A DNA stretch of 29,466 bases from a virus (taxonomy: Duplodnaviria; Heunggongvirae; Uroviricota; Caudoviricetes). Within the stretch, counting starts at the first letter, position 1, and each line of letters starts with the position of its first letter. Shown here one piece after another: positions 68 to 22,761 of the stretch. The translations under genes and the position numbers were made by a program. The stretch spans positions 1 through 29,466 of the IMG/VR virus record IMGVR_UViG_2565956720_000007; one strand, written 5' to 3'. Below the pieces are notes generated by a model that had not been told where the DNA came from, did no database searches, and worked only from the letters and a program-made list of their open reading frames with translations.

Positions 68-1048
68 TTGGAGTCATTACCGAACCGCAGTTTGCTCAAT
101 GACTTTAATAAATTAAAGAATCATTCCTTTGACAAAAATTGTATTTATAAATCGGTTTATAGACCGTTTAACAAATCAAATCTATATTTTAGCAGGGCGT
201 TAAACGATATGGTTTATCAAATGCCTCAGCTATTTCCAACAGCCGATTCTGATAACTTGGTTATTTATATTAACGGTAGTGGCAATGGTGGGAAACCGTT
301 CTCTGCATTAATAGTTAATGCAATTCCAGATTTGAATATGCAGCACTCAGGTGGGCAGGGGTTTCCTTTATATTATTATGAGAAATCTTCGAGTGATGAA
401 GTAGTTAAAGAATACAAAAGGAAAGAAGCAATTTCTGACGCAGGATTGTTTTATTTCAAAGACTTTTACTCAACTGAAAGCATAAGCAAAGAAGATGTTT
501 TCAATTATGTATACGGATTGCTTCATTCTGAAGATTATCGTGGACGTTATGCTGATAACCTTTCTAAGGAGTTACCGCGTATACCTTGTGTCAAAAAATA
601 TGACGACTTCGTGATTTTTTCTCAAGCTGGACGAGATTTAGCCTTTTGGCATTTGAATTTTGAAGAAGTCGAGCCATACAAAGCAACTATTGATTCTGGC
701 AACTTAAATTATTCTCAATTACCGAAAGAGGATTTTTATGTAGAGAAGATGAAGTTTGCTAAAAAGGCTGACAAAAGTACAGTCATCTATAAAAACAAAA
801 TACGGATAAAAAATATCCCATCTGAAGCCTATGATTACGTAGTAAATGGTAAACCTGCACTTGAATGGGTAATGGAACGACAGGGTGTTTTAACCCATAA
901 AGATAGCGGTATTGTTAATGATGCCAATGACTGGGCTATGGAAGCTATGGGAAATGCGAAATACCCATTGGAACTATTTCTAAGAGTTATCACTGTAAGC
1001 CTGGAAACTCAGAAGATAGTAAAAGGATTACCTAAACTCGATATATAA
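68..1048 (+). CDS. C-terminal domain fragment of a type ISP-like restriction-modification helicase/methylase family protein (possibly disrupted gene)
   Basis: 326-aa ORF from a TTG codon. Motif YVYGLLHSEDYRGRYADNLSKELPRIPCV matches my recollection of the conserved C-terminal target-recognition region of large helicase-methyltransferase (LlaGI/LlaBIII-like) proteins. Its frame is closed by stops at 44-46 and 50-52, while frame 1 is open from the window start to a TAA at 64-66, suggesting a frame break or truncated gene. Confidence 0.35.
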   Translation: MESLPNRSLLNDFNKLKNHSFDKNCIYKSVYRPFNKSNLYFSRALNDMVYQMPQLFPTADSDNLVIYINGSGNGGKPFSALIVNAIPDLNMQHSGGQGFPLYYYEKSSSDEVVKEYKRKEAISDAGLFYFKDFYSTESISKEDVFNYVYGLLHSEDYRGRYADNLSKELPRIPCVKKYDDFVIFSQAGRDLAFWHLNFEEVEPYKATIDSGNLNYSQLPKEDFYVEKMKFAKKADKSTVIYKNKIRIKNIPSEAYDYVVNGKPALEWVMERQGVLTHKDSGIVNDANDWAMEAMGNAKYPLELFLRVITVSLETQKIVKGLPKLDI

Positions 1049-1607
1049 GTAGATCAAGAACAGGATGGTGTTAATCACCATCCTGTACACAGGCTATAAT
1101 AATATTATTATTTATTAAGTTTTTCCGACTTTCATTAAAGGAAAATGTCTTTATATTAAAATTGGTTTGAGATTTATAAATCTCTTAGATTATTTTATGA
1201 TTTTTTTCTATGTATTTTTTGAAGAGAAAATGAGTGATATTACTCTCTCTCAATAACTTTTATTGAAGGGTTTAATTATAGAGGTAACGTTCTTTAAGCG
1301 ATTTTACACAGTCTTCCAGAGTAGTGAGTCAGTAGATAATTCCTATCTGTAAAAAAATAATACGGAACTAATATCTGTGAGTTTGTTATCTGTAAAATGA
1401 AATTTTTTACGTTGCTTCGTTCTTACCACGTAACGGACAGTGAGCAGGAACATTAGGTTCACTTAAGCGATACATAGCCACATGACTTCCTTTTCTAACC
1501 GAAGGGAAGAAAAGCAAGGGGAACTCAAAGAAGCAAGCGCAGCGGCTTCGCAGAGTTAGCCCTTGCTTCTCTTATAATTGGCATTATTCATTCAAGAACA
1601 ATAGGAT

Positions 1608-1627
1608 CTTCGCTTGTACAAGCGAAG
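1608..1627. repeat. Perfect 20-bp palindrome cttcgcttgtacaagcgaag in AT-rich non-coding region
   Basis: Read directly: cttcgcttgt is the exact reverse complement of acaagcgaag. Related half-site-like motifs (gaagcaagcg, aagcaaggg/cccttgctt) recur at 1512-1568. Confidence 0.7.
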
Positions 1628-2282
1628 CTATAATAAAAACAATCAATTAATTATTTTTAAAGTATTAAACAAGAACCTATTGACATTCATAAAATACAAG
1701 TTATTTATAATGTATGCCATAAATAAAAAGTTTTATGTCATATGTATCCTGCACTATGTGCAGTTAATGTACCACTTGTCCCATAGATGGGAATATTGGA
1801 AAGGTTACTTTGTTTTGAAGTAGCCTTTCGTCCTTCAATATTAACGATTACTTATTGCTATTACCAAGTCCAGTCGAATCGAAGAACATCTTTTATCTGA
1901 AACGACTCCTAATACCCGGTTAAAGCCACAATATCTCTCGCATACGTAGACCAAAGAAAAATTATGATATTAAATATGTGATTTTTTTTAGTGTTAAGTT
2001 GAATAATTAAATACTGGAGAGTTTTCTGTGCACTACCAATTGCTGGTTCATCTGTTCTGCCGCTGATGTTTCTGACGAATCTCCCGGTGACACAGAACTG
2101 TCCCTCTCTACCAGCCTTTATTCGACTCAATGTCCGGCTGCTGATACGAAGTTATCCCTTCGTATCAATGGCTTACACTTAAACGTAATGCTTTGGTTGC
2201 TGGCGTATCTGACAGCTTCTTCGGCGTGAAGGTCGTTGTGTAAGTATACTTCTTGGTTTATTTAGGCTATATAAAACCATGA

Positions 2283-3179
2283 CTATGACTTGCTGTTTTC
2301 AGTAAGAGTCTTATCATCCAAAGAATTTATTCTAGAAATTCTTTTTAACTCATTAAGATAATCAACCTCGTTTTCTAAGAACCAATGAAGAACTTTAGAA
2401 TTGCCAAGTAATTTATTAATATATGACTGGATTATAACGAATTTCAACATATCTGAACCATACTCGGTTTGAAGCTTTTTCGTTTCTTCCGAAGTTGTTG
2501 CCATTTCTTGTTCCAGACGAAGTATGGTTTTTTTTATGTCCTTTTTATAGGGAGTGTTTTTCCCTTTATTTACTATCATCGATGCCGGTGTTGCATCCAA
2601 GATGCTCATTGCAAATTTTTTACTATAATTATCAAAATTAATCATTGTACCGACTGCTTCAATTTGGCGAATTGGCTTCATTTTCCTCAAAACGTCAAAT
2701 GTAGCCTTAGGTATAGGTTTATCAGAAAGTTTCGCAATTACACTTGAATCTATGCCGTTCATCACATTCGCTTTATCTTTTATGGCATCAACAGATATGC
2801 CCAAAGCAGCACTAAGTTTTTCAATTGATACTTTTGCCAGAGACTTAATTATCATTCTATGTTCTTCAACTACATTTATATGATTCACTTGTTTGTTAGG
2901 AGTGAAAGCATCATCTATGCTCGAAAGTATACATGGAGCTTTTTCTATACCTAAGTCTTTTAAAGCCTCAACCCTTAAATGGCCATCAAGTATCTTAGTG
3001 ACATCTTTATCTTTGTCATAGAATACTATTATTGGTTCAATAATACCTAAGCTTTCGATAGAGGTAACTATATGATGATATTTATGGCTTCGCTTTACGT
3101 TTTCTAATAATTCCTTAGATGGAATTAACTTATTAGTTTCCAGGTAAATAAAATTATCGCCAAAACGTATCTGAATCAT
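2283..3179 (-). CDS. ParB/Srx-superfamily (ParB-like, KorB/RepB-like) protein, paralog 2
   Basis: 298-aa ORF; N-terminal region ILDGHLRVEALKDLG resembles the ParB-box arginine-containing motif; start overlaps stop of upstream ParB-like gene (3176-3179). AT-rich. Confidence 0.6.
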   Translation of the reverse strand: MIQIRFGDNFIYLETNKLIPSKELLENVKRSHKYHHIVTSIESLGIIEPIIVFYDKDKDVTKILDGHLRVEALKDLGIEKAPCILSSIDDAFTPNKQVNHINVVEEHRMIIKSLAKVSIEKLSAALGISVDAIKDKANVMNGIDSSVIAKLSDKPIPKATFDVLRKMKPIRQIEAVGTMINFDNYSKKFAMSILDATPASMIVNKGKNTPYKKDIKKTILRLEQEMATTSEETKKLQTEYGSDMLKFVIIQSYINKLLGNSKVLHWFLENEVDYLNELKRISRINSLDDKTLTENSKS

Positions 3180-4072
3180 TTTAATACCTCTTTGTTTACT
3201 GGGGTTAATATCTGAGATGGTAGTTCTGAAAGATTCTCTTGTTCAAGTATATGTTGAAAGCTTTTATTCATCATTATGATGTTAAAAATCTCATTTACTA
3301 TTAGTAGGTTGGTTTTTATGAATTTTGAGTTGTTATAAACAGATTTATGTTCAGCGATACTATTTTCATAAAGCTCAATCAACTCCTCTGCAGTCATCCT
3401 TTTTGATGGTTTGTGATAATAAAATCCGGCTGCTTTTGCACCTTTATTCCCAACTGTTCTTTGATTTAGAATGTGTTTTATCTTTATAATGTCCCGACTT
3501 TTTATTAATTTTTTATCATATGCTTCGGTAAGAATATCTTGTGCTTCCTCAGTTTCACATCTTGCAAATTGCACTGCGAGATACAGAGGCAAATTACCCC
3601 GTTCGACTGCTGAGAGAAGTTTATGCTCTCCCTTATCAAGTAGCATATTAATACTGCTCACCCAGTTCGATGAATATCCAGTAATCTCACTTATTTCGGA
3701 GTCTGAAAGTCCTCTGATTTTCATGTCTTTAATCACCTGTAATAACTCATTAGAACGTGGTCTTCTCCTTGCAATGTTTTCAACTAAACTCATAACGTAA
3801 GCATCTTCTTCTGATACATCTCTTATAATTGCTGGAATAATAGTTTCACCTAATGCAACGAGAGCCTCTATTCTCCCTTGACCACAAATTAAAGCATATT
3901 TGAAATCGCCTTCATCAATAGCTCTTACGCTTATAGGCTTGCTTAATCCTCTTTTTTTTATGCTTTCCTTTATTTCTTCATGCACTACCTTATTTCTTGT
4001 TCGTGGGTTAAGAAATTTTATTTTTGCAATCTCAATTTGAATTATTGGGAATTCATTTTTTTCAGGCAGCAT
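3176..4072 (-). CDS. ParB/Srx-superfamily (ParB-like) protein with HTH, paralog 1
   Basis: 298-aa ORF; ParB N-terminal motifs GQGRIEALVALG and SLVENIARRRPRSNELLQ followed by a helix-turn-helix-like segment; 11-nt overlap with recombinase gene stop, so translationally coupled operon. Confidence 0.65.
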   Translation of the reverse strand: MLPEKNEFPIIQIEIAKIKFLNPRTRNKVVHEEIKESIKKRGLSKPISVRAIDEGDFKYALICGQGRIEALVALGETIIPAIIRDVSEEDAYVMSLVENIARRRPRSNELLQVIKDMKIRGLSDSEISEITGYSSNWVSSINMLLDKGEHKLLSAVERGNLPLYLAVQFARCETEEAQDILTEAYDKKLIKSRDIIKIKHILNQRTVGNKGAKAAGFYYHKPSKRMTAEELIELYENSIAEHKSVYNNSKFIKTNLLIVNEIFNIIMMNKSFQHILEQENLSELPSQILTPVNKEVLK

Positions 4073-5618
4073 ATAGTTCCCTCACTTTCATGCGAGTAAT
4101 AATTTGTAGAAGTTTATCAAGATTATCAAATCTATAGAGATCTAATCGAATGTTGTTTGTTTCCGTCATGCACATTTTATTATATTCGTTTTCAATCTTT
4201 GGTATGATATAAAAATCAAGAGGTGAAATATTTTGTGAATTCATTCGTATAACAATTGTTATGTCTGCTTTCTGTGAGTTATCAAACCGGACTTTCCATC
4301 TAAGTTTACCTGATTTCATATGTATGCATTTAGTAACAAGGACGGAAATTAAAAACTCATCATTGATGTAAAGCATTGGGGCATATTTATACTCGTCTAT
4401 ATGACAGTTGCTTTTTAAAATTTCACCCTTAAAATCCTCAATTATCTCTGAGTAAAATGATCTTAGTGCTTCATTTATTTTGAGATAGCTGTAATCATGT
4501 TCTGGCTTATAACCAATCAAAGTATATGCTCTTAAAAGACCACCAAATCGGGTTCTATAAACAGAAGATGAAGGGCCTGTATCATCTTCATCAATGATAA
4601 AGCCTGATAGTTTTCCATTAGATTCTAATTTTTGTTTTAGTTTTTCTAATAGATCTTCATTAGTCAAATGAATGGATCGGAGCTGAATTATTTCTTGAGC
4701 TTTATTGTATTTTTTCTTTGAAATAATAGGTTTATATGCCTTGTCACATCTAACCCATTCATGTTTGGGGTTTTTTACAAGCCTACTTTTTAATTTAGAT
4801 GAGGTTTTGTTATATATGTTGTTTCCAATATATTTTTCATTTGTCAAAATTTGATGTATTTTTGCACGAGTCCATAATGTACCATTTTCTGCAGGTATGT
4901 TCTGTTCATTTAATCTCTCAGCAATAATGAATTCTGGGACGTTATTATCTATAAAGAGATCATATATTCTATTTACAATTTTTATTTCATTTTTTGGTCC
5001 CGGAATTAATATTACCCTATCTGTTTGAATACTCTTTCTTTTGCGGAAACTCAATATTTCTTTAGCTATGCCATTTTCGTCTACTAAAAGACGTCTCAGC
5101 CCATAACCAGCCATACCGCCTTGATGATAACCAAGCTTTATTAAATTTACTTGCCCTATAAATACCTTTTCAGATAGATTCCTGCTGTGATATGCAGCAC
5201 TAGATCTTTTTATATTCAGTATAACAGAGGACTCTAAAGGGAAATCTTTAGTGGGTATAGGTTCGGAACAATATATAAGATCTACACCATTTCTCTCAAA
5301 TAGAAAGGAATAATATGCCGCTTCATCACTATTTTGAAAACGACCAAAACGGCTCACATCATAAAATAATACAGCCTGTATATCTATTTTCTTTTGTTCT
5401 ACATCGCTAAGTAACTGCTGCAAAGAATGCCTGCCTACGATACTGACTCCGCTCTTACCTGAATCATCGTAGGTATAAGCGATTTCCATATTGTTCTTTT
5501 CAGCATAATCTTTGATATATTCGGACTGATTATGTAAAGAATATTGCTGATGGTCGGTAGACATCCTCAAGTACTGCGCGACCCTAACTCTATGATTTTT
5601 GTCATTTTCGCTAGCCAT
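4062..5618 (-). CDS. Large serine recombinase (resolvase/invertase catalytic domain plus recombinase domain)
   Basis: 518-aa ORF; N-terminal catalytic motif VAQYLRMSTDHQQYSLHNQ (Y-x-R-x-S...Q of serine recombinases); recombinase-domain-like middle region; first gene of a three-gene minus-strand operon. Confidence 0.8.
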   Translation of the reverse strand: MASENDKNHRVRVAQYLRMSTDHQQYSLHNQSEYIKDYAEKNNMEIAYTYDDSGKSGVSIVGRHSLQQLLSDVEQKKIDIQAVLFYDVSRFGRFQNSDEAAYYSFLFERNGVDLIYCSEPIPTKDFPLESSVILNIKRSSAAYHSRNLSEKVFIGQVNLIKLGYHQGGMAGYGLRRLLVDENGIAKEILSFRKRKSIQTDRVILIPGPKNEIKIVNRIYDLFIDNNVPEFIIAERLNEQNIPAENGTLWTRAKIHQILTNEKYIGNNIYNKTSSKLKSRLVKNPKHEWVRCDKAYKPIISKKKYNKAQEIIQLRSIHLTNEDLLEKLKQKLESNGKLSGFIIDEDDTGPSSSVYRTRFGGLLRAYTLIGYKPEHDYSYLKINEALRSFYSEIIEDFKGEILKSNCHIDEYKYAPMLYINDEFLISVLVTKCIHMKSGKLRWKVRFDNSQKADITIVIRMNSQNISPLDFYIIPKIENEYNKMCMTETNNIRLDLYRFDNLDKLLQIITRMKVRELYAA

Positions 5619-5788
5619 GCACGAAACCTCATGGATGATTCAATACAATGTAGTGGATAAAATTGATCAAATTTTAACCGAATTCAACTGTTTTATCATT
5701 GATTAGAGCGAATTTGGTAGATCTTCGAGGTGTATGATAATCGAGAAGAGATGTGAATTATTTAGCTGATATGACCGACAGCTTTCGT

Positions 5789-5838
5789 TATGTGGACTCA
5801 ATGTCCCCATTTGTAAATGGCTATGCTTAGTCCACATA
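5789..5838. repeat. Composite palindrome (outer 10-bp arms tatgtggact/agtccacata and inner 14-bp palindrome ccatttgtaaatgg sharing one centre) in the region upstream of the recombinase operon
   Basis: Read directly from sequence; both dyads are centred between 5813 and 5814; located between the integrase stop (5901) and the recombinase start (5618). Confidence 0.6.
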
Positions 5839-5900
5839 GGTTAATGGTGTGATTATTAATTCTTTAACTAAATCAAGATAGTTAATCCATCATGGGAGAG

Positions 5901-7130
5901 TTATGCGGCAATAACTTTGCATTTTTGAGACGAAACATAGTCACTCCACCATTGCATGAGAACCACCCGTTCAGTGAGATACTCTGCACGATTGTAGGCT
6001 GCAATTATTTCATCTTTCTTCGAGTGGGCAAGGGCGGCTTCTAAGACATCAGTCCTAAACTTGCCAGACTCCTCAGCAGCCGTTCTAGCAATGGATCGCA
6101 TACCGTGAGCTACAAGCTCACCTCCGAAACCCATACGGATTATGGCCGCATTAGCTGTTTGTTCATGCATGTGATTGAGTGGAGCTTTGATACTGGGGAA
6201 CACCCACTCTCTATGCCCGCTGATGACTTTCATTAAATCCAAAACTCGCAAAGCTTCTTTGCTCAGTGGAACTTTGTGAGGCTTCTTCATTTTCATAAAC
6301 TCCGCCGGGATGTTCCACATGCCAGTTTCAATATCAATATCTGACCATCTTGTGCGAACAGCTTCACCTGGGCGAACCCATGTGAGAAGTTGCCACTCAA
6401 TCAGTAGCCTTGTTTCCAAACGGATAGAAGCATTGTTTAGAGCAACCAAGAAGCGAGGGAGTTCGGAAGGGGGTAATGCTGGCATATTCTGTTTTTTTGG
6501 CTTGCTGAACCGTTGCCCCAGGTTGTCTGCCGGGTTGAATTCTATGAGTTCTTCTGTTGCTGCATAGCGGAAAATTTCATTCAGGCGGGATATGATGCGG
6601 CGAAGTGTTTCAAGGACACCTCGTTTTTCTATGGGTTCTAAATGCTGTTTAAGCATTTTAGGGCGAATCTCCTTAATTGGGGTATCACCCAATGTGGAAA
6701 AGATATTTCTCTCTAGGCTTCGCCAGATGTCGTTAGCATGATCTTGGGAGATGCCTGACGTTTTGACTTTCTCATCAAGCCACTTCTTGGCTACTGCTTG
6801 AAATGTATGTTCCGTGGCATCTTTCAGTGCATTGGCTTTTTGGTTGTTATGAACTTGGGGGTCTATACCATTTGTAAGCAACGACAAGTATTCATCACGT
6901 AAAGCTCGTGCCTTCGCAAGTGTAAGGTGAGGATAGGTTCCTAAGCTCACCTTAGTTCGCTTTTTGGTCACAGGCACTGCATATCTGAAATACCAATTTT
7001 TCTTCCCTCCCTTCGCCAGGGGAGCGATTCGCAACAGCAAACCATCGCCGTCAAAAAGGTTAACCTCTTTTTCGGCAGGTTTGGTGCTTTTGATTTCAGT
7101 GTCAGTGAGCTTCTTAGCGATTTTGGCCAT
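5901..7130 (-). CDS. P4-family tyrosine integrase (CP4-57 IntA-like)
   Basis: Start placed at internal ATG 7128-7130 giving the typical N-terminus MAKIAKKLTDTEIKSTKPAEKEVNLFDGDGLLLRI (arm-binding domain of P4-type integrases); C-terminal catalytic region with conserved R..HxxR..Y context. The longer ORF to 7211 is probably N-terminal overextension. Confidence 0.85.
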   Translation of the reverse strand: MAKIAKKLTDTEIKSTKPAEKEVNLFDGDGLLLRIAPLAKGGKKNWYFRYAVPVTKKRTKVSLGTYPHLTLAKARALRDEYLSLLTNGIDPQVHNNQKANALKDATEHTFQAVAKKWLDEKVKTSGISQDHANDIWRSLERNIFSTLGDTPIKEIRPKMLKQHLEPIEKRGVLETLRRIISRLNEIFRYAATEELIEFNPADNLGQRFSKPKKQNMPALPPSELPRFLVALNNASIRLETRLLIEWQLLTWVRPGEAVRTRWSDIDIETGMWNIPAEFMKMKKPHKVPLSKEALRVLDLMKVISGHREWVFPSIKAPLNHMHEQTANAAIIRMGFGGELVAHGMRSIARTAAEESGKFRTDVLEAALAHSKKDEIIAAYNRAEYLTERVVLMQWWSDYVSSQKCKVIAA

Positions 7131-7228
7131 GTTTGGGACCCTCGATTTTAGGACCCATCTTCGTGGGTCCCATTCAGGGTGCCATAACTCGTAGTTCTCA
7201 GCAATTCTCACTAGACTACAATAGACGT

Positions 7229-7260
7229 AAAAAAGCCCGCAGAGCTTGTGCTGTGCGGGC
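7229..7260 (-). terminator. Rho-independent terminator downstream of the ssrA 3' fragment (minus strand)
   Basis: Hairpin gcccgcagagc-ttgt-gctgtgcgggc (one mismatch) followed on the minus strand by a run of six T (plus-strand aaaaaa at 7229-7234). Confidence 0.6.
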
Positions 7261-7296
7261 TTAGTAGACTTTACTGAACTTCAGTACATCAATATT

Positions 7297-7341
7297 TGGT
7301 GGAGCTGGCGGGAGTTGAACCCGCGTCCGAAATTCCTACAT
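7297..7341 (-). other. ssrA: 45-nt copy of the 3' end of tmRNA gene ssrA (attachment-site core; not a complete ssrA)
   Basis: Minus-strand sequence ATGTAGGAATTTCGGACGCGGGTTCAACTCCCGCCAGCTCCACCA matches the recalled E. coli ssrA 3' terminus exactly; similarity stops abruptly at 7342, so only the att core is present. Confidence 0.8.
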
Positions 7342-7458
7342 ACCATTTTTACACTAACGAAATCATATTTTTTCATTCTAAATCATGATGTTAGTGTTAA
7401 TCTGTGTTTGCTTGTTTTACTTGTTTTTAGTGCTCTGCCGCCAAAGTGCCGCCATTTA

Positions 7459-8484
7459 TTAGCGATGCCAGTTGAGGTTATGAAGTGGATTTTTGGTAAC
7501 GGCATCTTCCAGATGATCCGGTGCAAAATGGGCATAAATCATGGTCATTTTAATATCAGCGTGCCCTAAAATATCCCTCAATACTAAAATGTTTCCGCCG
7601 TTCATCATAAAGTGGCTGGCGAAAGTGTGGCGCAGAACGTGGGTACATTGACCTTCAGGTAGTTCAATTCCAGCTCGTTTTACCGCACGCTCAAAAGCCT
7701 TTCGGCATGGTGTGAATAACTTTCCTCTGTTTTTGGGTAATTCTTCATACAGTTCCTGAGAAATAGGAACAGTTCGGTTTTTCTTTCCTTTTGTTTTGGT
7801 ATAGGTAATTCGATACTTTGATATCTGGTTACCTTGCAGGTTTTCGGCTTCGCTCCATCTTGCCCCGGTTGCCAGACAAATCTTGGCAATCATTAGCAGA
7901 CTGGGACTTTGAGATTCAGCACAAGCGTCAAGCAGGCGTTTGATTTCATCAGCAGCAAGGAACGCCAGTTCACCCTCTGCAATTTTGAAAGTTGGCAGAC
8001 CGGCGAGAGGGTTGGGTGCAGACCAATGTCCCAGCTTTTTCAGTGTGCCAAAAACTGAGGATAGGTTACGTTGTTCAAGGTTCACCGTTCTGGGCTTAAC
8101 TGGTGACATGAGCACACCATCTTCGTTTTTGACCTCACCTTTTAATCTGGCTTCCCGGTATTTTGTGAAATCACCTGCTGTCAATTCAGAAGCGATGGGA
8201 TCGCCAAGCCCATTACAAATGATTTTTAACTTAGCCATTAATCGCTTAGGGTCAGCGAGTGTCTGACCGTACAGGGAATACCATTGCTCAATCACTTCTG
8301 ACAGTTGTCTCCGATCTTCCTTTTCTCCCAGCCAAGGTTTCTTGTTTACCTCGTCCATGGTGAAATTCTCAAACGCAATGGCTTCGCCTTTCGTCGCAAA
8401 TTGTTTGCGTACGCGTTTGCCATCTCGCCCGTTTGGGTAGCATTCACATAACCACTTTCCGTTCGGCTGTTTTCTGATGGTCAT
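7459..8484 (-). CDS. int: P2/186-type phage tyrosine integrase
   Basis: 341 aa; strong similarity to recalled P2 Int, e.g. ATGARWSEAENL and HVLRHTFASHFMMNGGNILVLRDILGHADIKMTMIYAHFAP catalytic region. Confidence 0.9.
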   Translation of the reverse strand: MTIRKQPNGKWLCECYPNGRDGKRVRKQFATKGEAIAFENFTMDEVNKKPWLGEKEDRRQLSEVIEQWYSLYGQTLADPKRLMAKLKIICNGLGDPIASELTAGDFTKYREARLKGEVKNEDGVLMSPVKPRTVNLEQRNLSSVFGTLKKLGHWSAPNPLAGLPTFKIAEGELAFLAADEIKRLLDACAESQSPSLLMIAKICLATGARWSEAENLQGNQISKYRITYTKTKGKKNRTVPISQELYEELPKNRGKLFTPCRKAFERAVKRAGIELPEGQCTHVLRHTFASHFMMNGGNILVLRDILGHADIKMTMIYAHFAPDHLEDAVTKNPLHNLNWHR

Positions 8485-8485: not shown

Positions 8486-9118
8486 TCAAAGGCTCTTAAT
8501 GATTTTCAGTGCGCGGCCTATTACCTTAATGTCATCCAGTTCGCACTCAAACGATGAATCATCCTGATGCACTACTAATCTGTTTCCCGGGAGTCGTGTC
8601 AATTTTACAATGCTTTTTATCCCGTCGATGTCCACTAACCACGTACCATTTACTGGTGGTGTTTGGTTGCGATCTATTAAATAAGAATCACCAGAAGTAG
8701 TCACCAGCAGCAGGTTGCTTGAGTCTGAGGGGAGTATGCTGCTATCAATGATTGCTTTTCCAGCATCGACCAATAAACCACCGTTGAGAGTTGCCTTTTC
8801 AATTTCAGGAGATACAAGCTCAGAAAGAGGTTTAACCTTGCTGGGGTTCACGGAATTGATATTTTTTTTAGGGTCAATGTTTGAACCTGGCTCGCCCTGT
8901 CCGGTGGTTAGCCATAGTAAAGAAACTCCTGTTTCCAAGGCGCACTGAATCACCCATTCTGCGGGAAAGCTATCTCTTAAGTATCTGTTTGCCATAGTGC
9001 TTTTTGATGCACCTAAGTGATCGCAAAGTTGCTGTCTGGACTTGAAATCATAGGCTGCCATTAGTCTATGGATAGCCTCTCTTCCCCCTGTATTCTCGCC
9101 AGCTTTTACCTGTATCAT
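8486..9118 (-). CDS. cI: 186-type CI-like prophage repressor (HTH N-terminal domain)
   Basis: 210 aa; HTH-like segment LGASKSTMANRYLR and CALETGVSLLWLTTGQGE; located directly upstream of and co-oriented with int, divergent from apl-like gene, as in phage 186. Confidence 0.7.
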   Translation of the reverse strand: MIQVKAGENTGGREAIHRLMAAYDFKSRQQLCDHLGASKSTMANRYLRDSFPAEWVIQCALETGVSLLWLTTGQGEPGSNIDPKKNINSVNPSKVKPLSELVSPEIEKATLNGGLLVDAGKAIIDSSILPSDSSNLLLVTTSGDSYLIDRNQTPPVNGTWLVDIDGIKSIVKLTRLPGNRLVVHQDDSSFECELDDIKVIGRALKIIKSL

Positions 9119-9237: not shown

Positions 9238-9486
9238 ATGAGCAACGACATTTCAATTCGTGTACCAAAAGTGATGGCGACACCTGCAGAGTTCGCGGAA
9301 TGGGAAGGCCGCTCTCGCGGTTCGGTATATCAAATGATTCATAATGGTAAACTCGCTAAGTTTTTGGAAAGAAAGGAAAAACCGAAAGACAGAGTATGTA
9401 TACGTTACCTTGAGTACAAAAAGGAACAAGTCAGGAAAAACATGGGCCAATCCAATTTCAACTTTAATGTCATCGTTGGTGACTAA
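9238..9486 (+). CDS. apl: Apl/Cox-like small DNA-binding protein (excisionase/transcriptional regulator)
   Basis: 82 aa, divergent from cI, HTH-like segment ATPAEFAEWEGRSRGSVYQMIHNGKL; position equals 186 apl / P2 cox. Confidence 0.65.
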   Translation: MSNDISIRVPKVMATPAEFAEWEGRSRGSVYQMIHNGKLAKFLERKEKPKDRVCIRYLEYKKEQVRKNMGQSNFNFNVIVGD

Positions 9487-9518: not shown

Positions 9519-10028
9519 ATGTTTGATTACAAAATTTCCAAACATCCGCATTTTGATGAAGCCTGTAGAACTTTTGCACTACGTCACAATATGGCGAAGC
9601 TGGCAGAACGTGCAGGAATGAATGTTCAGACACTGAGAAACAAACTCAACCCAGATCAACCGCATCAGCTCACCGCACCAGAAATCTGGCTGCTTACCGA
9701 TCTGACTGAAGATTCAACGCTGGTAGATGGTTTTCTGGCTCAGATTCACTGCCTGCCATGCGTACCGATTAATGAGGTGGCAAAAGAGAAACTGCCACAT
9801 TACGTCATGAGTGCAACCGCAGAGATCGGGCGTGTTGCTGCAGGTGCGGTATCTGGCGATGTAAAAACCAGTGCAGGTCGTCGTGATGCTATCAGCAGCA
9901 TTAACTCTGTAACACGACTGATGGCGCTGGCTGCTGTTTCATTGCAGGCCCGTTTACAGGTTAACCCTGCGATGGTGAGTGCAGTTGATACCGTGACTGG
10001 CCTCGGTGCTTCATTCGGTTTGCTGTGA
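9519..10028 (+). CDS. cII: 186 CII-like transcriptional activator
   Basis: 169 aa (the size I recall for 186 CII), position after apl, RBS aaggtgg upstream of ATG. Confidence 0.55.
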   Translation: MFDYKISKHPHFDEACRTFALRHNMAKLAERAGMNVQTLRNKLNPDQPHQLTAPEIWLLTDLTEDSTLVDGFLAQIHCLPCVPINEVAKEKLPHYVMSATAEIGRVAAGAVSGDVKTSAGRRDAISSINSVTRLMALAAVSLQARLQVNPAMVSAVDTVTGLGASFGLL

Positions 10029-10035
10029 GGTGCTT

Positions 10036-10332
10036 ATGTTGACGAAAGAACCATCATTTGCATCGCTGCTGGTAAAACAAAGCCCGGCAATGCACTACGG
10101 TCACGGCTGGATCATGGGTGAGGATGGTAAACGCTGGCATCCATGTCATTCACAAGATGAATTGCTGTCTGAATTGACCACGAGGAAACGGAGAAAGTCA
10201 AAATGTATGCAGCGGAAAGTGAAGTGGTTTATCAGTTTCGTTACAGAGGGGAGAGTTATTCAGTACCTGAAGATGATTTGCTCTGTTGTTATCCGTCGTT
10301 GTCGGGCGATGGCAGTTACTTTTTCACGCTAA
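10036..10332 (+). CDS. Hypothetical small early protein (uncertain extent)
   Basis: ATG at 10036 preceded by gtgagg RBS; 3' part overlaps next ORF in another frame, so the true end is uncertain. Confidence 0.3.
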   Translation: MLTKEPSFASLLVKQSPAMHYGHGWIMGEDGKRWHPCHSQDELLSELTTRKRRKSKCMQRKVKWFISFVTEGRVIQYLKMICSVVIRRCRAMAVTFSR

Positions 10333-10427
10333 GGGATGGGACGTTTTTACGGGGAGAGCAGGTTAAAGAGACGATACGAAAAAATGTATCTCCTCTTGAA
10401 CGTTACCGTAAGAAAAAAGAACGATAG
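10203..10427 (+). CDS. Hypothetical small early protein
   Basis: 74 aa, ATG preceded by ggagaaag RBS. Confidence 0.5.
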   Translation: MYAAESEVVYQFRYRGESYSVPEDDLLCCYPSLSGDGSYFFTLRDGTFLRGEQVKETIRKNVSPLERYRKKKER

Positions 10428-10449
10428 TTGCGTTTGGGGGATATGAATT

Positions 10450-10791
10450 ATGGCAATTAATGGCGCTGCGGCGACTGTTCCATTAAGCCCCGGTGAACGC
10501 CTGAATGGACTTAATCACATTGCGGAGTTAAGGGCGAAAGTATTTGGCCTGAATATTGAGTCAGAGCTTGAGCGGTTTATTAAAGATATACGTGATCCAC
10601 GGGATATCAATAACGAACAAAATAAACGAGCACTGGCTGCCATATTCTTTATGGCAAAAATTCCAGCTGAACGTCATAGCATCAGCATTAATGAGCTGAC
10701 CACTGACGAAAAGCGGGAGTTGATTAAAGCAATGAATCATTTTCGTGCAGTGGTGAGCTTATTTCCCAGACGGCTAACCATGCCGAATTAA
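10450..10791 (+). CDS. Hypothetical phage early-region protein
   Basis: 113-aa ORF co-oriented in early operon; no recognisable motif. Confidence 0.5.
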   Translation: MAINGAAATVPLSPGERLNGLNHIAELRAKVFGLNIESELERFIKDIRDPRDINNEQNKRALAAIFFMAKIPAERHSISINELTTDEKRELIKAMNHFRAVVSLFPRRLTMPN

Positions 10792-10858
10792 CCAACTAAT
10801 GAAATTAATGGCGTAAACCCGCCGGGCATCCCTTTATCTAAATTCAGGAGAATTGATT

Positions 10859-11092
10859 ATGCGTAATATTGAAATCCTCACGACTAAAACCGGACCGGAT
10901 GATGCAGGGCTTAATATTTTACTGACAGAGGCTCGTCTGGAAGAACGCCGGGCAAGGGCTGAAGCAATGGCAGCTCGCCTTGATAGCCTGGCGTGTCATA
11001 TCTCATCCCGTCAGCTAAACCACGTGGAAGCGGCAGAACTGCTGCGTGTGACTGCTGAAGCAATCCAGAACGAAGCGCAGGAGATCCACTAA
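10859..11092 (+). CDS. Hypothetical phage early-region protein
   Basis: ATG 10859 preceded by caggag RBS; 77 aa. Confidence 0.5.
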   Translation: MRNIEILTTKTGPDDAGLNILLTEARLEERRARAEAMAARLDSLACHISSRQLNHVEAAELLRVTAEAIQNEAQEIH

Positions 11093-11319
11093 TGGCTGAT
11101 GCAATGGATCTCGTACAGCAGCGCGTTGAAGAAGAACGCCAGCGCCATATCCGTGCTGCCCGTGCCAAAACACCGGGTGTGTCTCGCGTGCTTTGCATTG
11201 AGTGTGAAGCGCCAATTCCGCCAGCACGACGCCGCGCCATTCCGGGTGTGCAGCTTTGCATTACTTGCCAGGAAATCGCAGAGCTGAAAGGCAAACATTA
11301 CAACGGAGGTGCTGTATGA
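11092..11319 (+). CDS. TraR/DksA-family C4 zinc-finger protein
   Basis: 75 aa with CxxC...CxxC ([25 protein letters not shown]) typical of phage TraR/DksA-like proteins. Confidence 0.7.
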
Positions 11320-11618
11320 CAAGGGCAGTGCGTATCCATCAATTAAAAATTGCACCTAAGTATTTCAACGCTGTGGTTGCAGGTCAAAAGACGGCTGAAC
11401 TTCGTAAAGACGATCGTGGCTATAAAGTTGGTGATGTTCTTTCTCTTTGCGAATGGAAGCATGGCGTATTTACGGGTAGGGAATGGGCCGCTGTTATCTC
11501 TCATGTGTTTCCGGTTAATGACGTCATGGCAGTTTCAGAACAATGGGTGATGCTATCAATTCGCCCATTAACCCCATTAGAAGCTTTAGGATATGTTATT
11601 GCCGGAGGTGCTGTATGA
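11316..11618 (+). CDS. Small ASCH/DUF3850-like domain protein
   Basis: 100 aa from ATG 11316 with ggagg RBS; [36 protein letters not shown] resembles ASCH-like small phage proteins; flanked by identical 16-nt junctions (see findings). Confidence 0.5.
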
Positions 11619-12472
11619 GCACCATCCTGAAATGGGCGGGAAATAAAACCGCCATTATGCCAGAACTGAAAAAACACCTTCCAGCTGGCCCGCGACTGGT
11701 TGAACCTTTCGCGGGTTCCTGTGCGGTGATGATGGAGACGGATTATCCAAGCTATCTGGTTGCGGATATTAATCCTGATTTAATCAACCTCTATAAAAAG
11801 GTTGCCGCTGATTGTGAATCGTTTATATCTCGCGCCAGAGTTTTATTTGAGATCGCAAACAGGGAGGTAGCTTATTACAACATAAGGCAGGAGTTTAATT
11901 ACTCAACTGAAATTACTGATTTCATGAAAGCGGTATATTTCCTGTATCTCAATCGTCACGGTTACCGTGGTTTATGTCGCTATAACAAGAGCGGGCATTT
12001 CAATATTCCCTACGGTAATTATAAAAATCCGTATTTCCCTGAAAAAGAAATTCGCGCATTTGCAGAAAAAGCCCAGCGGGCAACGTTTATCTGCGCCAGC
12101 TTTGATGAAACGCTGGCGATGTTGAAGGCGGGGGATGTGGTGTATTGCGATCCGCCTTATGACGGTACGTTTTCCGGCTATCACACTGATGGTTTCACTG
12201 AAGATGACCAGTATCACCTGGCATCCGTTCTTGAACATCGATCATCAGAAGGTCATCCAGTCATTGTTTCTAACAGTGACACATCCCTGATTCGTTCGCT
12301 GTATCGCAATTTTACTCACCACTATATCAAGGTAAAACGCAGCATCGGTGTGGCAGCTGGCGAGTGTAAATCAGCAACAGAAATCATCGCTGTTTCCGGG
12401 CCGCGCTGCTGGGTGGGATTTGATCCTTCGCGTGGCGTGGATAGTTCTGCCGTGTACGGAGTGCGTGCATGA
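11615..12472 (+). CDS. Dam-family DNA N6-adenine methyltransferase
   Basis: Motifs KWAGNK near N-terminus and DPPY catalytic motif; start ATG 11615 with ggagg RBS, overlapping upstream stop (ATGA). Confidence 0.85.
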
Positions 12473-14883
12473 GCCATGCTGATATGAACAACTGCAGCGG
12501 CTTTAACGAGGTCGCAGCAGCATTCTCATGGAGCAGCCCGAAAAAGGCCATTAACCCTTATCTGGACCCGGCGGAAGTTGCGCCGGTTTCTGCGCTTTCA
12601 AACCTGATCACTCTGTACGCTGCCGATAACGAGCAGGAACAGCTGCGCCGTGAGGCGCTGAGTGATCAGGTCTGGGAGCGTTATTTCTTTAATGAATCCC
12701 GTGATCCTGTCCAGCGCGAAATCGAGCAGGATAAGCTCATTAGTCGGGCAAAGCTGGCGCATGAGCAGCAGCGTTTTAATCCGGATATGGTCATTCTGGC
12801 GGACGTCAACGCCCAGCCTTCCCATATCAGCAAGCCGCTGATGCAACGTATTGAATACTTCAGCAGTCTGGGCAGGCCAAAGGCTTATTCCCGCTATTTG
12901 CGTGAGACGATTAAGCCATGTCTGGAACGACTGGAGCATGTACGCGAGAGTCAGCTATCCACTTCTTTTCGCTTTATGGCAAGCCATGAAGGGCTGGACG
13001 GCCTGCTGATCCTGCCTGAAATGAGTCAGGATCAGGTGAAGCGCCTGTCTACCCTTGTTGCCGCGCATATGAGCATGTGCCTTGATGCAGCTTGTGGTGA
13101 TTTGTATGCCACCGATGACGTTAAGCCAGAAGAAATCCGCAAGACATGGGAAAAGGTGGCAGCGGAAACCCTGCGTCTGGATGTAATCCCTCCTGCGTTT
13201 GAGCAACTCCGTCGGAAAAGAAACCGCCGTAAACCCGTGCCCTATGAACTCATTCCGGGTTCGCTGGCGCGTATGTTGTGCGCCGACTGGTGGTATCGGA
13301 AATTATGGAAGATGCGTTGCGAATGGCGGGAAGAGCAGTTGCGTGCTGTCTGCCTGGTCAGCAAAAAAGCATCTCCCTATGTCAGCTATGAAGCCGTGAT
13401 GCATAAACGTGAGCAGCGCCGTAAGTCGCTGGAGTTTTTCCGTTCTCATGAACTGGTGAACGAAGACGGCGACACGCTGGACATGGAGGATGTGGTAAAC
13501 GCCAGCAGCAGCAACCCGGCGCATCGCCGCAATGAGATGATGGCCTGTGTTAAAGGTCTGGAGCTTATCGCGGAAATGCGCGGTGACTGCGCCGTTTTCT
13601 ACACCATCACCTGTCCGTCACGTTTCCATTCCACGCTCAATAACGGCAGACCAAACCCGACCTGGACAAACGCGACGGTAAGACAAAGCAGCGATTATCT
13701 GGTCGGCATGTTTGCTGCATTTCGTAAGGCGATGCACAAAGCCGGGTTGCGCTGGTATGGCGTGCGGGTGGCTGAGCCGCATCATGACGGCACAGTTCAC
13801 TGGCACCTGTTGTGTTTCATGCGCAAAAAAGACCGCCGTGCCATCACTGCATTACTGCGTAAGTTTGCCATCCGTGAAGACCGCGAGGAGCTGGGCAATA
13901 ACACTGGGCCGCGCTTTAAGTCTGAGTTGATTAACCCGCGCAAAGGAACGCCAACAAGCTACGTCGCGAAATACATCAGTAAGAACATTGACGGGCGTGG
14001 TCTGGCTGGCGAGATCAGCAAGGAAACGGGGAAATCCCTGCGTGATAATGCTGAATACGTTAATGCCTGGGCGTCTCTGCATCGTGTTCAGCAATTCCGC
14101 TTCTTTGGCATTCCGGGGCGTCAGGCTTACCGTGAACTGCGATTGCTGGCTGGTCAGGCGGCAAGGCAACAGGGGGACAAAAAAGCAGGTGCGCCGGTAC
14201 TGGATAACCCACGCCTTGATGCCATCCTGGCTGCTGCTGATGCTGGTTGTTTTGCCACCTACATCATGAAGCAGGGCGGCGTACTGGTTCCCCGCAAATA
14301 TCACCTCATCAGAACCGCTTATGAAATCAACGAAGAGCCGACCGCCTATGGCGATCACGGCATTCGTATCTATGGCATCTGGTCACCTATTGCAGAGGGC
14401 AAGATCTGCACTCATGCCGTGAAGTGGAAAATGGTTCGTAAGGCCGTTGATGTTCAGGAGGCGGCAGCCGACCAGGGCGCTTGCGCCCCTTGGACTCGTG
14501 GCAATAACTGTCCCCTTGCTGAAAATTTGTACCAACAAGGGAAAGACAAATCAGCTGATGGAGATACCAGAACGGATATCACCCGCATGGATGACAAGGA
14601 GTTGCACGATTACCTGCACAGTATGAGCAAAAAAGAGCGCCGGGAACTGGCAGCAAGGTTACGCCTGGTGAAACCGAAACGGCGTAAAGACTACAAACAG
14701 CGAATTACAGACCATCAGCGACTGCAGCTCGTGTATGAACTGAAGTCCAGGGGATTTGATGGCAGCGAGAAAGAGGTCGATTTACTGCTTCGCGGCGGCA
14801 GTATTCCGTCAGGAGCAGGCCTGCGTATCTTCTATCGGAACCAGCGTTTGCAGGAAGATGATAAGTGGCGAAACCTGTATTAA
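12469..14883 (+). CDS. A: P2 gpA-like rolling-circle replication initiation protein
   Basis: 804 aa; HUH-type motif HWHLLCF and catalytic tyrosine motif YVAKYISK typical of P2 A/phiX174 A family. Confidence 0.85.
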
Positions 14884-14977
14884 TTACGCGGGTTAACAAT
14901 TCGTGCTCTTAATAATACCAGGCATATCAGGCTGATGAGCGTAAAAAAACGTTTTACATCAGTAAGATTATTATATA

Positions 14978-14993
14978 CTGTAAATATAAACAG
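14978..14993 (+). promoter_or_regulatory. LexA (SOS) box CTGTAAATATAAACAG upstream of Tum/DinI-like module
   Basis: Exact CTGT-N8-ACAG dyad with AT-rich spacer, 43 bp upstream of the ATG at 15036, in an AT-rich promoter-like region. Confidence 0.6.
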
Positions 14994-15035
14994 TGGTTAT
15001 GTATACAGTATTGCTTTGGTGTCATAGGAGGAAAG

Positions 15036-15224
15036 ATGCAGGACTATTTTTTGGAGTCTTTGAAGCTCCAGCGCATTGATTTTTTTCTTAAGCTTGTAGC
15101 GGCTAGTGAGTGTAGTGATGAAGAGAAGGGGCTGGCCCTGCAGTGGGTTTCTGAACTGACAGATGAACTCATGGCAAAAATCAGAACCCACGAATACAAC
15201 CGCTCAATGGATGTCATCAGCTGA
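15036..15224 (+). CDS. Small protein, possible N-terminal part of a Tum-like SOS-inducible antirepressor
   Basis: 62 aa, strong RBS aggagg 6 nt upstream of ATG; downstream of LexA box; overlaps the frame carrying the DinI-like ORF. Confidence 0.5.
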   Translation: MQDYFLESLKLQRIDFFLKLVAASECSDEEKGLALQWVSELTDELMAKIRTHEYNRSMDVIS

Positions 15225-15234
15225 GGTGACTTTT

Positions 15235-15468
15235 ATGCGCATTGAAATAATGATCGATAAAGAGCAGAAGATTAGCCAGTCTACACTGGACGCCCTTGAA
15301 TCCGAGCTTTACCGCAATCTGCGCCCCCTGTATCCCAAAACGGTAATTCGTATCCGCAAAGGTAGCTCTAACGGTGTGGAACTGACCGGACTGCAACTGG
15401 ACGAAGAAAGAAAACAAGTGATGAAAATTATGCAGAAGGTGTGGGAAGACGACAGCTGGCTGCATTAA
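15235..15468 (+). CDS. DinI-family protein (DinI-like domain as in 186 Tum C-terminus)
   Basis: 77 aa from ATG 15235; MRIEIMIDK...IRIRKGSSNGVELTGL...VMKIMQKVWEDDSWL matches recalled DinI (MRIEVTI...ETWESADDWF). Confidence 0.7.
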   Translation: MRIEIMIDKEQKISQSTLDALESELYRNLRPLYPKTVIRIRKGSSNGVELTGLQLDEERKQVMKIMQKVWEDDSWLH

Positions 15469-15603
15469 GAAACGTTGCTGGCGTCTGAACTTGTTTCTGG
15501 CGTCAGCAAGGTTGAACAACGAGCCCTTGCGAGGCGTTAGCTCTGTAGTGCATGTCTATGCCGCATGAGATCGCATGATCGTTTGAGGATCGTTTTTGCT
15601 AAG

Positions 15604-15630
15604 GCCCGCCAGGAGTGGCGGGATTTTGCT
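15604..15630 (+). terminator. Candidate rho-independent terminator
   Basis: 6-bp GC stem cccgcc/ggcggg with 6-nt loop followed by attttgctt. Confidence 0.35.
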
Positions 15631-15673
15631 TATGTCATGCAGGCGCATGAAAACCGCTACATAAAGCGGGCAG

Positions 15674-15692
15674 GCGTGGCGGGGATACGAGC
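15674..15692 (+). other. Candidate cos site (P2/186-type cohesive end)
   Basis: ggcgtggcggggatacgag: first 13 nt identical to the recalled 186 cohesive end GGCGTGGCGGGGAAAGCAT (P2: GGCGAGGCGGGGAAAGCAC); lies between the A/tum region and the portal side as expected for a prophage. Confidence 0.5.
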
Positions 15693-15804
15693 GCGCGCTA
15701 TGTGGTATAGGCCTTAATTTAGTATGATTCAAGAGTGTCGGGATCTTTGCGCTGATCAGTCCTAAGTTATATGATAAGAAAAATGCATAAAAAAGGTTCG
15801 GTTC

Positions 15805-16779
15805 ATGGGGTTAGGATTAAAAGACGCTATTGTGCATACCGCTGCGTTTCATCAAAAGGAAACTAATGAATTGCAATTGCCAAACAACCATTGGCATCCT
15901 GGTTTTATCACTGTCTTAGCAGCTTACGTGAATCATCACAAAATTACCGAAGATAACTGCGTTTTGTCATGCCCTGACTATATGCGAGCTATCAATTTAC
16001 ATGGTGCTTTATGGGGCGAGGATCAGTATCAACAGGAACGTGTAAATGTTGGAAGAAATTACAGTTTGGTTACAGCATTAACCAATGTTGAAGCTGTTGA
16101 CGTTGCCACTGGTAGTATTAACAGTTGTGTAAGGCAGTTAACATTCCCTGATCGTGATCCGAGAGATTATCCCAAGGGACTTACAGATCTAACTCATGTT
16201 ATAGGTGAGCTTCACGATAACGTTTGGTCGCATGGAAAATCAACGGGTTTTTCTTTTGCACAACGTTCGGCTGTACCCCACACACAAAGAAAAGAGCACT
16301 ATTTAGAATTTTCTTTGGCGGACTGTGGGTTAGGATTTCTCCGAGAATTGCGGCGAGCTGGTATACCCGGAATTGAGACTCACCAGGATGCGATCGCATG
16401 GTGTATTCAAGAGGGACATTCATCTAAGCATGCTGATTTGCAGGATGATTGGGCACAGCAACTTCCCCAGGATTTTATTGGGGGTAGTATGTTTGGTCAC
16501 GGGGTTTCGGTCAAAGAAAAAGATAATAATCATCAAGGGCTTGGGTTATATCACTTGATGAAATTGATAAAAACATATAATGGGGAATTGCAACTGGCTT
16601 CAGGAAATGTATGCTTAGAAGCAATAGGTGATGAAGTGAGCTATACTGAATTACGTACTAAATGGCCGGGTGTAGCAATTTCTTGCCGTTTTAAGATTCA
16701 TGAACTGGCAGTCGATAAAGATAGCGAAGAAAATGACCCTCAGCTTATGGAAATAATGCGGGCGTTAGGAGGAGAGTAA
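15805..16779 (+). CDS. GHKL-superfamily (histidine-kinase-like) ATPase with uncharacterised N-terminal domain; accessory gene, candidate defence/partner-switching kinase
   Basis: 324 aa; N-box-like ELHDNVWSHG, G1 box DCGLGF, G2 box GHG...QGLGLYHL in correct order and spacing for a HATPase_c fold; about 125 N-terminal residues of no recognisable family; lower GC than flanking phage genes. Confidence 0.6.
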   Translation: MGLGLKDAIVHTAAFHQKETNELQLPNNHWHPGFITVLAAYVNHHKITEDNCVLSCPDYMRAINLHGALWGEDQYQQERVNVGRNYSLVTALTNVEAVDVATGSINSCVRQLTFPDRDPRDYPKGLTDLTHVIGELHDNVWSHGKSTGFSFAQRSAVPHTQRKEHYLEFSLADCGLGFLRELRRAGIPGIETHQDAIAWCIQEGHSSKHADLQDDWAQQLPQDFIGGSMFGHGVSVKEKDNNHQGLGLYHLMKLIKTYNGELQLASGNVCLEAIGDEVSYTELRTKWPGVAISCRFKIHELAVDKDSEENDPQLMEIMRALGGE

Positions 16780-17117
16780 TGAACAAAATCGCATACAAGT
16801 TACCCGAGGGTGACCTGGCTTCGCGCAATCAGGCTATCCCCCAACGACACAAGATTGAAGGGTTCATTAAAGAAGGGTATACCGTAGATTTGGACCTGAG
16901 CGGTGTTTATTCAATTTCAGAATCATACTCTGATGAAATCTTTGGTGTTTTGGTAGTGAAATTCGGTGTAACCAAAGTTTTGAGTCAGGTTAAGGTTCGC
17001 AATGCATCCCCTTCAATTTTAAAAAGTATTGCAAAAGTGATCCAACGTCGTAGCAATGAAGTAGCATCAAAAAAGGTTCATTCCGTTGGATTTGATGGTT
17101 TATACGCCGTTTGTTAA
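16779..17117 (+). CDS. STAS-like (DUF4325-like, anti-sigma-antagonist-like) small protein, partner of the GHKL ATPase
   Basis: 112 aa; start overlaps upstream stop (TAATG); VDLDLSGVYSISESYSDEIFGVLVVKFG resembles the STAS-like DUF4325 signature as I recall it. Confidence 0.5.
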   Translation: MNKIAYKLPEGDLASRNQAIPQRHKIEGFIKEGYTVDLDLSGVYSISESYSDEIFGVLVVKFGVTKVLSQVKVRNASPSILKSIAKVIQRRSNEVASKKVHSVGFDGLYAVC

Positions 17118-17134
17118 TATATGGTTAGTTAGAT

Positions 17135-17165
17135 AAAAGGCGCTGAGATTAGCGCCTTTTCTTTT
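17135..17165. terminator. Bidirectional rho-independent terminator between convergent STAS-like gene and portal gene Q
   Basis: Hairpin ggcgct-gagatt-agcgcc flanked by aaaa on the left and ttttctttt on the right. Confidence 0.7.
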
Positions 17166-19961: not shown

Positions 19962-20007
19962 GGCACAAACCTACAGCCTTGAATGAAGGCTTTCCCCGCC
20001 TGCGGTT

Positions 20008-20025
20008 TGTGTGGCTGTCGGTACA
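20008..20025. promoter_or_regulatory. P2-type late promoter activator site (TGT-N12-ACA dyad) between P and O
   Basis: tgt-gtggctgtcggt-aca in the divergent P/O intergenic region, where P2 Ogr-dependent late promoters carry this dyad. Confidence 0.5.
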
Positions 20026-20103
20026 AATACCGCGCATTGTTTCACTGCCCCCATCACCGCAACCATAAGGCTCCAGTAAGTTTTTTCTAACGGAGCACGG
20101 CTC

Positions 20104-20937: not shown

Positions 20938-20953
20938 TGGAGCACAAAACCCG

Positions 20954-22012: not shown

Positions 22013-22015
22013 TTC

Positions 22016-22666: not shown

Positions 22667-22761
22667 CAGAACGTGCCCCCGCGCACGGGCGGCACGGGGT
22701 GGCGAAAGGCACTGCCACATCAAAACCCCGTCCACCGCCCTCTATTTCAGGAGAAAGCAGC

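Follow-up and report, generated by a model that had tools for sequence, protein, structure and literature searches.

The ssrA fragment and its surroundings

The window, by which we mean the whole stretch of 29,466 nucleotides that was analysed, contains a short piece of the tmRNA gene ssrA enclosed between two tyrosine integrase genes of different families, one belonging to an island of the P4 type and the other to a prophage of the Fels-2/186 kind. The ssrA piece, the terminator that follows it and both integrase genes are all on the minus strand. The features of the window on which the argument depends are the following.

1-81, end of an IS1 element that truncates the island; the reverse complement of GGTAATGACTCCAACTTATTGATAGTG..., which we take to be the IS1 terminal sequence
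82-5900, rest of the P4-type island (Pfam; 100% identity to the islands of FORC_082 and other strains)
68-1048, type ISP/IIG restriction-modification gene, truncated, C-terminal part
2283-3179, minus strand, second of two tandem ParB/RepB-like genes
3176-4072, minus strand, first of the two ParB/RepB-like genes
4062-5618, minus strand, large serine recombinase of 518 aa with Resolvase and Recombinase domains
5901-7130, minus strand, P4/CP4-57-type tyrosine integrase of 409 aa (Pfam, NCBIfam, identity to IntA)
7131-7296, minus strand, arm and leader of the P4-type island, from the ssrA end to the integrase start codon (100% identity to prophage-free strains)
7229-7262, minus strand, intrinsic terminator, with its hairpin at 7233-7262 and its U-tract running to 7229 (folding)
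7297-7341, minus strand, displaced 3' fragment of ssrA, the last 45 nt (exact single match; the same as the attP core of phage SEN8)
7342-7458, minus strand, P arm of the prophage attR (homologous to the SEN8 P arm up to the core boundary)
7459-8484, minus strand, Fels-2/186/P2-family tyrosine integrase of 341 aa (Pfam Int_N and Phage_integrase)
8486-9118, minus strand, 186-type CI repressor (Pfam Phage_CI_repr and Phage_CI_C)
9238-9486, plus strand, Apl-like excisionase/regulator of 82 aa (72% identity to the annotated excisionase of SEN8)
9519-29466, remainder of the 186/Fels-2-like prophage, which runs off the right end of the window (Pfam and synteny)

Read along the minus strand from 7341 to 7297, the ssrA piece has the sequence ATGTAGGAATTTCGGACGCGGGTTCAACTCCCGCCAGCTCCACCA. 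It is an exact copy, with 0 mismatches, of the last 45 nt of the E. coli gene, as the initial annotation had claimed, and it occurs once in the window, where 0 copies would be expected by chance (100 shuffles). The same 45 nt are the annotated 3' end of ssrA in K-12 (positions 1412-1456 of the K-12 locus, L004, where the gene ends at 1456) and they close ssrA in every other locus compared; the orientation of the fragment is that of the intact gene in the relatives described below. In the alignments, identity to ssrA ends precisely at 7341/7342, and upstream of 7341 no similarity to the gene was found.

ARAGORN found no complete tmRNA or tRNA gene in the window, and Rfam gave no match there at its gathering scores. 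In a permissive Rfam scan the tmRNA model (RF00023) reached 30.8 bits against a cut-off of 47, with its 3' end alone aligned, and the remainder consisted of sub-threshold matches to the ends of the IsrM model and noise from miRNA, snoRNA and leader models. A complete ssrA gene hidden in the window is ruled out by the ARAGORN result and the empty Rfam scan at gathering score, and one overlapping 7297-7341 is equally contradicted by alignments that stop at 7341/7342; the earlier suggestion that the intact gene must lie outside the window agrees with this, as no tmRNA gene is present within it. Neither a second copy of the 45-nt core nor a 13-nt pseudo-ssrA lacking one T occurred elsewhere in the window beyond chance.

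The fragment is followed by a terminator and then by the P4-family integrase gene, an order that had also been proposed from the sequence at the outset and that is borne out by the hairpin at 7229-7262 and the open reading frame at 5901-7130. The terminator hairpin has a folding energy of -20.4 kcal/mol (z = -6.95), and none of 200 shuffled sequences (0/200) folded equally well; a simple terminator scan recovered the inner part of the hairpin only, and the full stem came from folding. This terminator is homologous to the ssrA terminator of K-12 and matches, at 100% identity, the sequence after the intact ssrA of the prophage-free strain NIPH17_0020. The entire arm and leader (7131-7296) sits after intact ssrA in prophage-free strains. 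The terminator is part of the arm of the P4-type element and, in those strains, serves the live ssrA gene.

Two integrases and the elements behind them

Both integrase genes are full length, and each could be assigned to its family. The start codon of the P4-type integrase is the ATG at 7130 and not the GTG at 7211 that a mechanical reading of the frame gives. The 409-aa product contains the Pfam domains Arm-DNA-bind_3 (DUF4102), Phage_int_M and Phage_integrase, it passes the NCBIfam IntA-type model NF007246 (444.6 bits, cut-off 434), over 401 aa it shares 48% identity with the K-12 integrase IntA (the HGxR, LAH and Y motifs are present in the alignment), and it is 100% identical to the protein encoded beside intact ssrA in NIPH17_0020 (L006). 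By these sequence comparisons the open reading frame at 5901-7130 is an integrase of the P4/CP4-57 type.

The large serine recombinase and the two ParB/RepB-like genes form a conserved trio that adjoins this tyrosine integrase; a PADLOC search of the trio gave no defence assignment beyond a weak match to a methyltransferase domain. Beyond the trio, the type ISP/IIG gene has been reduced to a remnant that keeps only its C-terminal specificity domain, and IS1 cuts the island at 81/82. In two strains with an identical island, FORC_082 and B-JRPT-4119, an IS1 element lies between the type ISP remnant and a truncated amylase gene beside glaH, and the annotation no longer has ypjA between glaH and the island. 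IS1 meets the type ISP gene at a different point in the window than in FORC_082. In NCTC11023 even the P4-type integrase gene has been cut by an IS element. Because IS1 cuts the island in the window, and because ypjA has dropped out of the annotation there in the two strains with the identical island, the P4-type island may have lost its far end, and a far-end copy of its core and an excised circular form may not exist.

On the other side of the ssrA fragment, the initial annotation had described prophage DNA leading into a P2-type integrase, and this description is confirmed: the integrase gene at 7459-8484 (minus strand) has the CI, Apl-like and CII genes behind it. The integrase is 95% identical to that of Salmonella phage SEN8, the alignment contains the RHTFASH, GH and Y motifs, and it matches the HP1 integrase 1aih (6e-68) and the chain 5c6k, entitled "Integrase" (9e-52). 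It is also 100% identical to the integrase of a prophage in E. coli 160-11H1. Its assignment to the P2/186/HP1 type is made on these alignments.

Within 9519-29466, Pfam matches were obtained for CII, a Dam-type methylase, replication protein A and DinI; synteny with related prophages places here the portal, terminase, capsid, lysis and baseplate genes and the start of the tail fibre genes. Gene for gene, the prophage of the window is syntenic with the annotated prophages of 160-11H1 and NCTC11023, and it is probably intact. The genome of the window was not found in a search of 5,426 complete E. coli genomes, where those that matched best are mosaics, at about 96-97% identity over 82-86% of 25 kb.

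Between the DinI and portal genes, the prophage has a variable cargo slot, occupied in the window by a two-gene cassette (15805-17117, plus strand). Its 324-aa protein had no Pfam or PADLOC match, and its 112-aa protein belongs to DUF4325 (STAS-like) and gives a weak match to a segment of DrmA. The same slot in related prophages holds DUF262, dCTP deaminase, GapS1 or SEFIR genes, and the pair may be an uncharacterised anti-phage system. In some of the related prophages the integrase gene is also separated from the 45-nt attR core by an additional 1-2.5 kb, as in E. coli ACN001 (L003, 21888-22817, annotated as a hypothetical protein) and in two Citrobacter loci (L007 and L009); this is a second place for cargo, located at the outermost margin of the element, and the prophage of the window is without such an insertion.

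The attachment site in four configurations

The origin of the 45-nt fragment becomes apparent when the free phage, the chromosome with the island alone and the two ends of the integrated prophage are compared. In the free phage SEN8, attP is made up of the identical 45 nt with a P arm on one side and a P' arm on the other. Its P arm is homologous to 7342-7458 of the window up to the boundary ...AAAAATGGT|ATGTAGG, and its P' arm, AAATAAAACAAGGGGTTACGTGAAAACGTAGCCCCTTTTTCTTTGGTGGTGGCGGCAAAATGGCGACAG, is homologous to what comes after the intact ssrA of 160-11H1. The chromosome with the island alone is represented by the prophage-free strains NIPH17_0020, FORC_082 and B-JRPT-4119, in which the order is smpB, intact ssrA, terminator, P4-type integrase, serine recombinase and the two ParB-like genes. 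Between 7341 and the start of the integrase gene, the DNA of NIPH17_0020 and that of the window are 100% identical, and the similarity is lost at 7341/7342. Since the identity breaks at this point, the window corresponds to the chromosome with the island alone into which a single Fels-2-type phage has inserted, at ssrA position 318/319.

The attL configuration is found in 160-11H1, where smpB and an annotated intact ssrA are followed by the P' arm and then by the ogr end of the prophage, and NCTC11023 has the same layout, with intact ssrA and smpB at the far end of its prophage. The attR configuration is that of the window and of the equivalent sites in 160-11H1 and NCTC11023, so that the complete order in these two genomes is smpB, intact ssrA, the ogr side of the prophage, CI, integrase, the 45-nt fragment and the P4-type integrase. 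The copies at attL and attR have in common the 45 nt plus 1-3 A/T bases after the CCA. In this comparison the 45-nt block of the window is the core of the prophage attR. The prophage has its own integrase and, to judge by the free phage SEN8, an attP bearing a fragment of its target gene, together with a displaced 3' fragment of that target, in the same orientation, at one of its ends. These are among the features by which Islander-type islands are recognised; another, a regenerated target gene at the opposite end, is seen in 160-11H1 and NCTC11023.

The earlier prediction that an intact ssrA would be found past the far end of the prophage is confirmed directly in 160-11H1 and NCTC11023, and for the window's own genome it is extended from these two. 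The distance between the end of tail gene I and the 3' end of ssrA is 10.5-11.4 kb in the two relatives, a spacing that would place the intact gene at about 38.9-39.8 kb, some 9-10 kb past the end of the window. The far end predicted in this manner would have, on the minus strand, an ogr-type gene and a short P' arm containing TGGCGRCA repeats and a GGGGTTACG...CGTAGCCCC-TTTTT terminator, followed by an intact ssrA of 363 nt that closes with the 45-nt sequence and by smpB.

The arms of the site contain short repeats. Two direct repeats, TGGCGGCA, are present in the P arm of the window at 7436-7443 and 7447-7454 (minus strand). In SEN8 the motif TGGCGRCA occurs 6 times in 4.9 kb, where 0.4 would be expected, and five of these copies flank the core, with two on the P-arm side and three on the P'-arm side (L005, 1415-1452 and 1640-1658). 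These repeats are probably arm-type binding sites of the integrase, candidates of which we found no description in the literature searched.

The initial annotation had regarded the 45-nt block as the segment of identity shared by both elements, which had used one attachment site in series. That two elements occupy ssrA in series holds, but the attachment site is not the same. The distal end of CP4-57 in K-12 is a 14-nt pseudo-ssrA (psaA), CCGCCAGC-CCACCA, in which one T is missing, and in 160-11H1, whose island is of the type found in the window, the same 13 nt, CGCCAGC-CCACCA, are followed by the same chromosomal flank; in E. coli ACN001 no 13-nt pseudo-ssrA lacking the T was found. Since the distal repeat of the P4-type elements in K-12 and 160-11H1 measures 13-14 nt and that of the prophage 45 nt, the two integrases use different sublocations in ssrA. 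The P4-type enzyme acts at the extreme 3' end of the gene, within an identity block of about 13-14 nt, and the 45-nt block is the attL/attR identity of the prophage alone. A position 45 nt from the CCA end is what we take to be the anticodon-loop sublocation of many tRNA-targeting integrases of this family. The last approximately 14 nt of the fragment are also the core that lies beside the integrase-side arm of the P4-type island. As for the signs of a tandem array, the window contains two integrase families and the fragment belonging to the prophage; the island's own fragment is not in it.

The junction between prophage and fragment (window 7133-7458) was found in 45 of the 5,426 complete E. 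coli genomes, whereas the ssrA core itself was matched in every one of the 5,426. Elsewhere, a single scan of species-representative genomes with the junction of P arm and core gave four matches: Citrobacter pasteurii, Citrobacter sp. FP75, Photorhabdus australis and Enterobacteriaceae G50. The 8-kb loci of these four yielded no P4-type integrase, a small sample in which the tandem arrangement was thus not seen outside E. coli.

Order of integration and relation to known arrays

The arrangement would be explained by the insertion of a Fels-2/186-like prophage (Felsduovirus-type, P2 family) into an ssrA gene that already bore a P4/CP4-57-type island downstream, and we hold this reading with high confidence. 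The attP of the phage, which carries the last 45 nt of ssrA, would have recombined with the gene by an integrase-mediated crossover inside that identity. The phage's copy would then complete ssrA at the far (attL) end, where the phage would also supply a new terminator, and the old 3' end of the gene would have been displaced by about 30 kb to attR, still joined to the island's terminator and integrase gene. The island would have integrated earlier, at the more 3' sublocation of about 13-14 nt, and would later have been cut by IS1. Insertion of this sort is the standard way in which elements enter tRNA and tmRNA genes without destroying them (PMC4383910). We infer the recombination event itself, its order with respect to the island and any competence for excision at the present day.

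Considered alone, the structure would be compatible with either order of integration. Had the prophage come first, a P4-type element would have inserted later into the last approximately 14 nt of the displaced fragment, at attR; that fragment retains the whole 13-14 nt ssrA terminus that P4-type elements repeat and would have kept its native downstream flank, and it could in principle serve as attB. Three points nevertheless favour the older island. The identical island lies directly on intact, live ssrA in prophage-free strains (100% for the integrase protein and 100% for the DNA over 7133-7341), it has decayed through the action of IS elements, which suggests age, and the junction with the prophage, whose genes look intact, is restricted to the 45 complete genomes. 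Given these points, we consider the opposite order very unlikely. The chance is close to nil that the fragment is what remains of an ssrA pseudogene after deletion or rearrangement, or a product of chance or faulty assembly, with no site-specific integration involved: the piece of the gene is short and the window has no second copy of it, but the breakpoint coincides to the base with the core boundary of the free-phage attP and the fragment with the attL/attR repeat of the relatives, 45 complete genomes and four other enterobacterial species have the junction too, 0 copies of the 45 nt are expected by chance, and the four-way comparison of the att sites contradicts such an origin.

The ssrA gene is the best-known of integration hotspots, and the arrangement that an older island and a younger prophage would have produced here is well known in enteric bacteria. 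SopEPhi and Fels-2 are both reported to integrate into ssrA (PMC3448106). For the ssrA of S. Typhimurium LT2, Table 1 of PMC10107115, citing Williams 2003, lists an element with a P4 integrase, Stm27X, together with Fels-2 and its P2 integrase; as far as that listing goes, tandem occupancy of ssrA by P2-type and P4-type elements was already recorded in 2003. The Islander software, which counted 125 tandem arrays at tRNA and tmRNA genes, resolves them automatically (PMC4383910). Compared with LT2 by way of the entries in that table, the window likewise has a P2-type prophage and a P4-type element at ssrA with a displaced 3' fragment between them; it differs in that the fragment belonging to the island itself lies beyond the window and may be lost.

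The prophage shares with Fels-2, SopEPhi and SEN8 (Felsduovirus, 186-like Peduoviridae) its ssrA site, an integrase that is 95% identical in the case of SEN8, the same core and a homologous P arm, as well as the 186-type CI, the Apl-like protein, CII and replication protein A, and P2-type morphogenesis genes placed by synteny. In contrast to SEN8, its host is E. coli, the DNA identity across int-cI is only 83%, and it has its own cassette at 15805-17117. The island resembles CP4-57 of K-12 (integrase IntA, attL in ssrA, attR formed by psaA) in having a P4-type integrase directly after the ssrA terminator and in the same orientation, in the homology of that terminator, in the 48% identity to IntA and the passing of NF007246, and in the same flank with 13-nt pseudo-ssrA in the relative 160-11H1. 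Unlike CP4-57, it has as cargo a serine recombinase, two ParB-like genes and a type ISP remnant, it is cut by IS1, no alpA-like gene was identified between its integrase and its serine recombinase, and its integrase-side junction lies on a dead 45-nt fragment instead of on live ssrA.

In K-12 the excision of CP4-57 places the pseudo-ssrA lacking a T at the 3' end of ssrA, and the resulting tmRNA is inactive, with rescue by ArfA (PMC10107115). It is conceivable, if doubtful, that a resident prophage insulates the live ssrA gene from the excision switch of its P4-type neighbour. Were this so, excision of the P4-type element would not affect the live gene, and the switch would be armed again once the prophage was induced. 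Because IS1 truncates the island, a working switch is unlikely in this genome, and the proposed insulation is the only, and mildly, new angle of the finding, which otherwise opens no new question. The value of the finding lies mainly in annotation: the fragment fixes to the base the right boundary of the prophage as well as that of the older P4-type island on its integrase side, and the live ssrA gene should be sought about 30 kb from the fragment and not at the fragment itself. It is also a clean textbook case, in which attP, an equivalent of attB, attL and attR can all be compared side by side, with two integrase families that use different sublocations in ssrA.

The leader that joins the fragment to the P4-type integrase also bears a likeness to the Salmonella small RNA IsrM. 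The Rfam model of IsrM (RF02763, 329 nt) gave 46.3 bits at 7229-7306 (minus strand) against a gathering score of 376, and the match consists of the two ends of the model, with 272 model positions replaced by 21 nt. An IsrM sRNA at 7229-7306 is rejected, the score being far under the gathering score with the ends alone aligned. As a weaker idea, the fragment and its terminator might form the 3' end of a small RNA resembling IsrM or of the cI-int transcript of the prophage. The last approximately 57 nt of IsrM are essentially the terminator of the window. IsrM is an island-encoded sRNA of Salmonella, and in LT2 isrM lies just upstream of the integrase gene STM2763 (PMC2515195). Relative to that integrase gene, isrM has the position that the leader composed of ssrA fragment and terminator occupies here, and IsrM may have originated from an att-site leader of this type.
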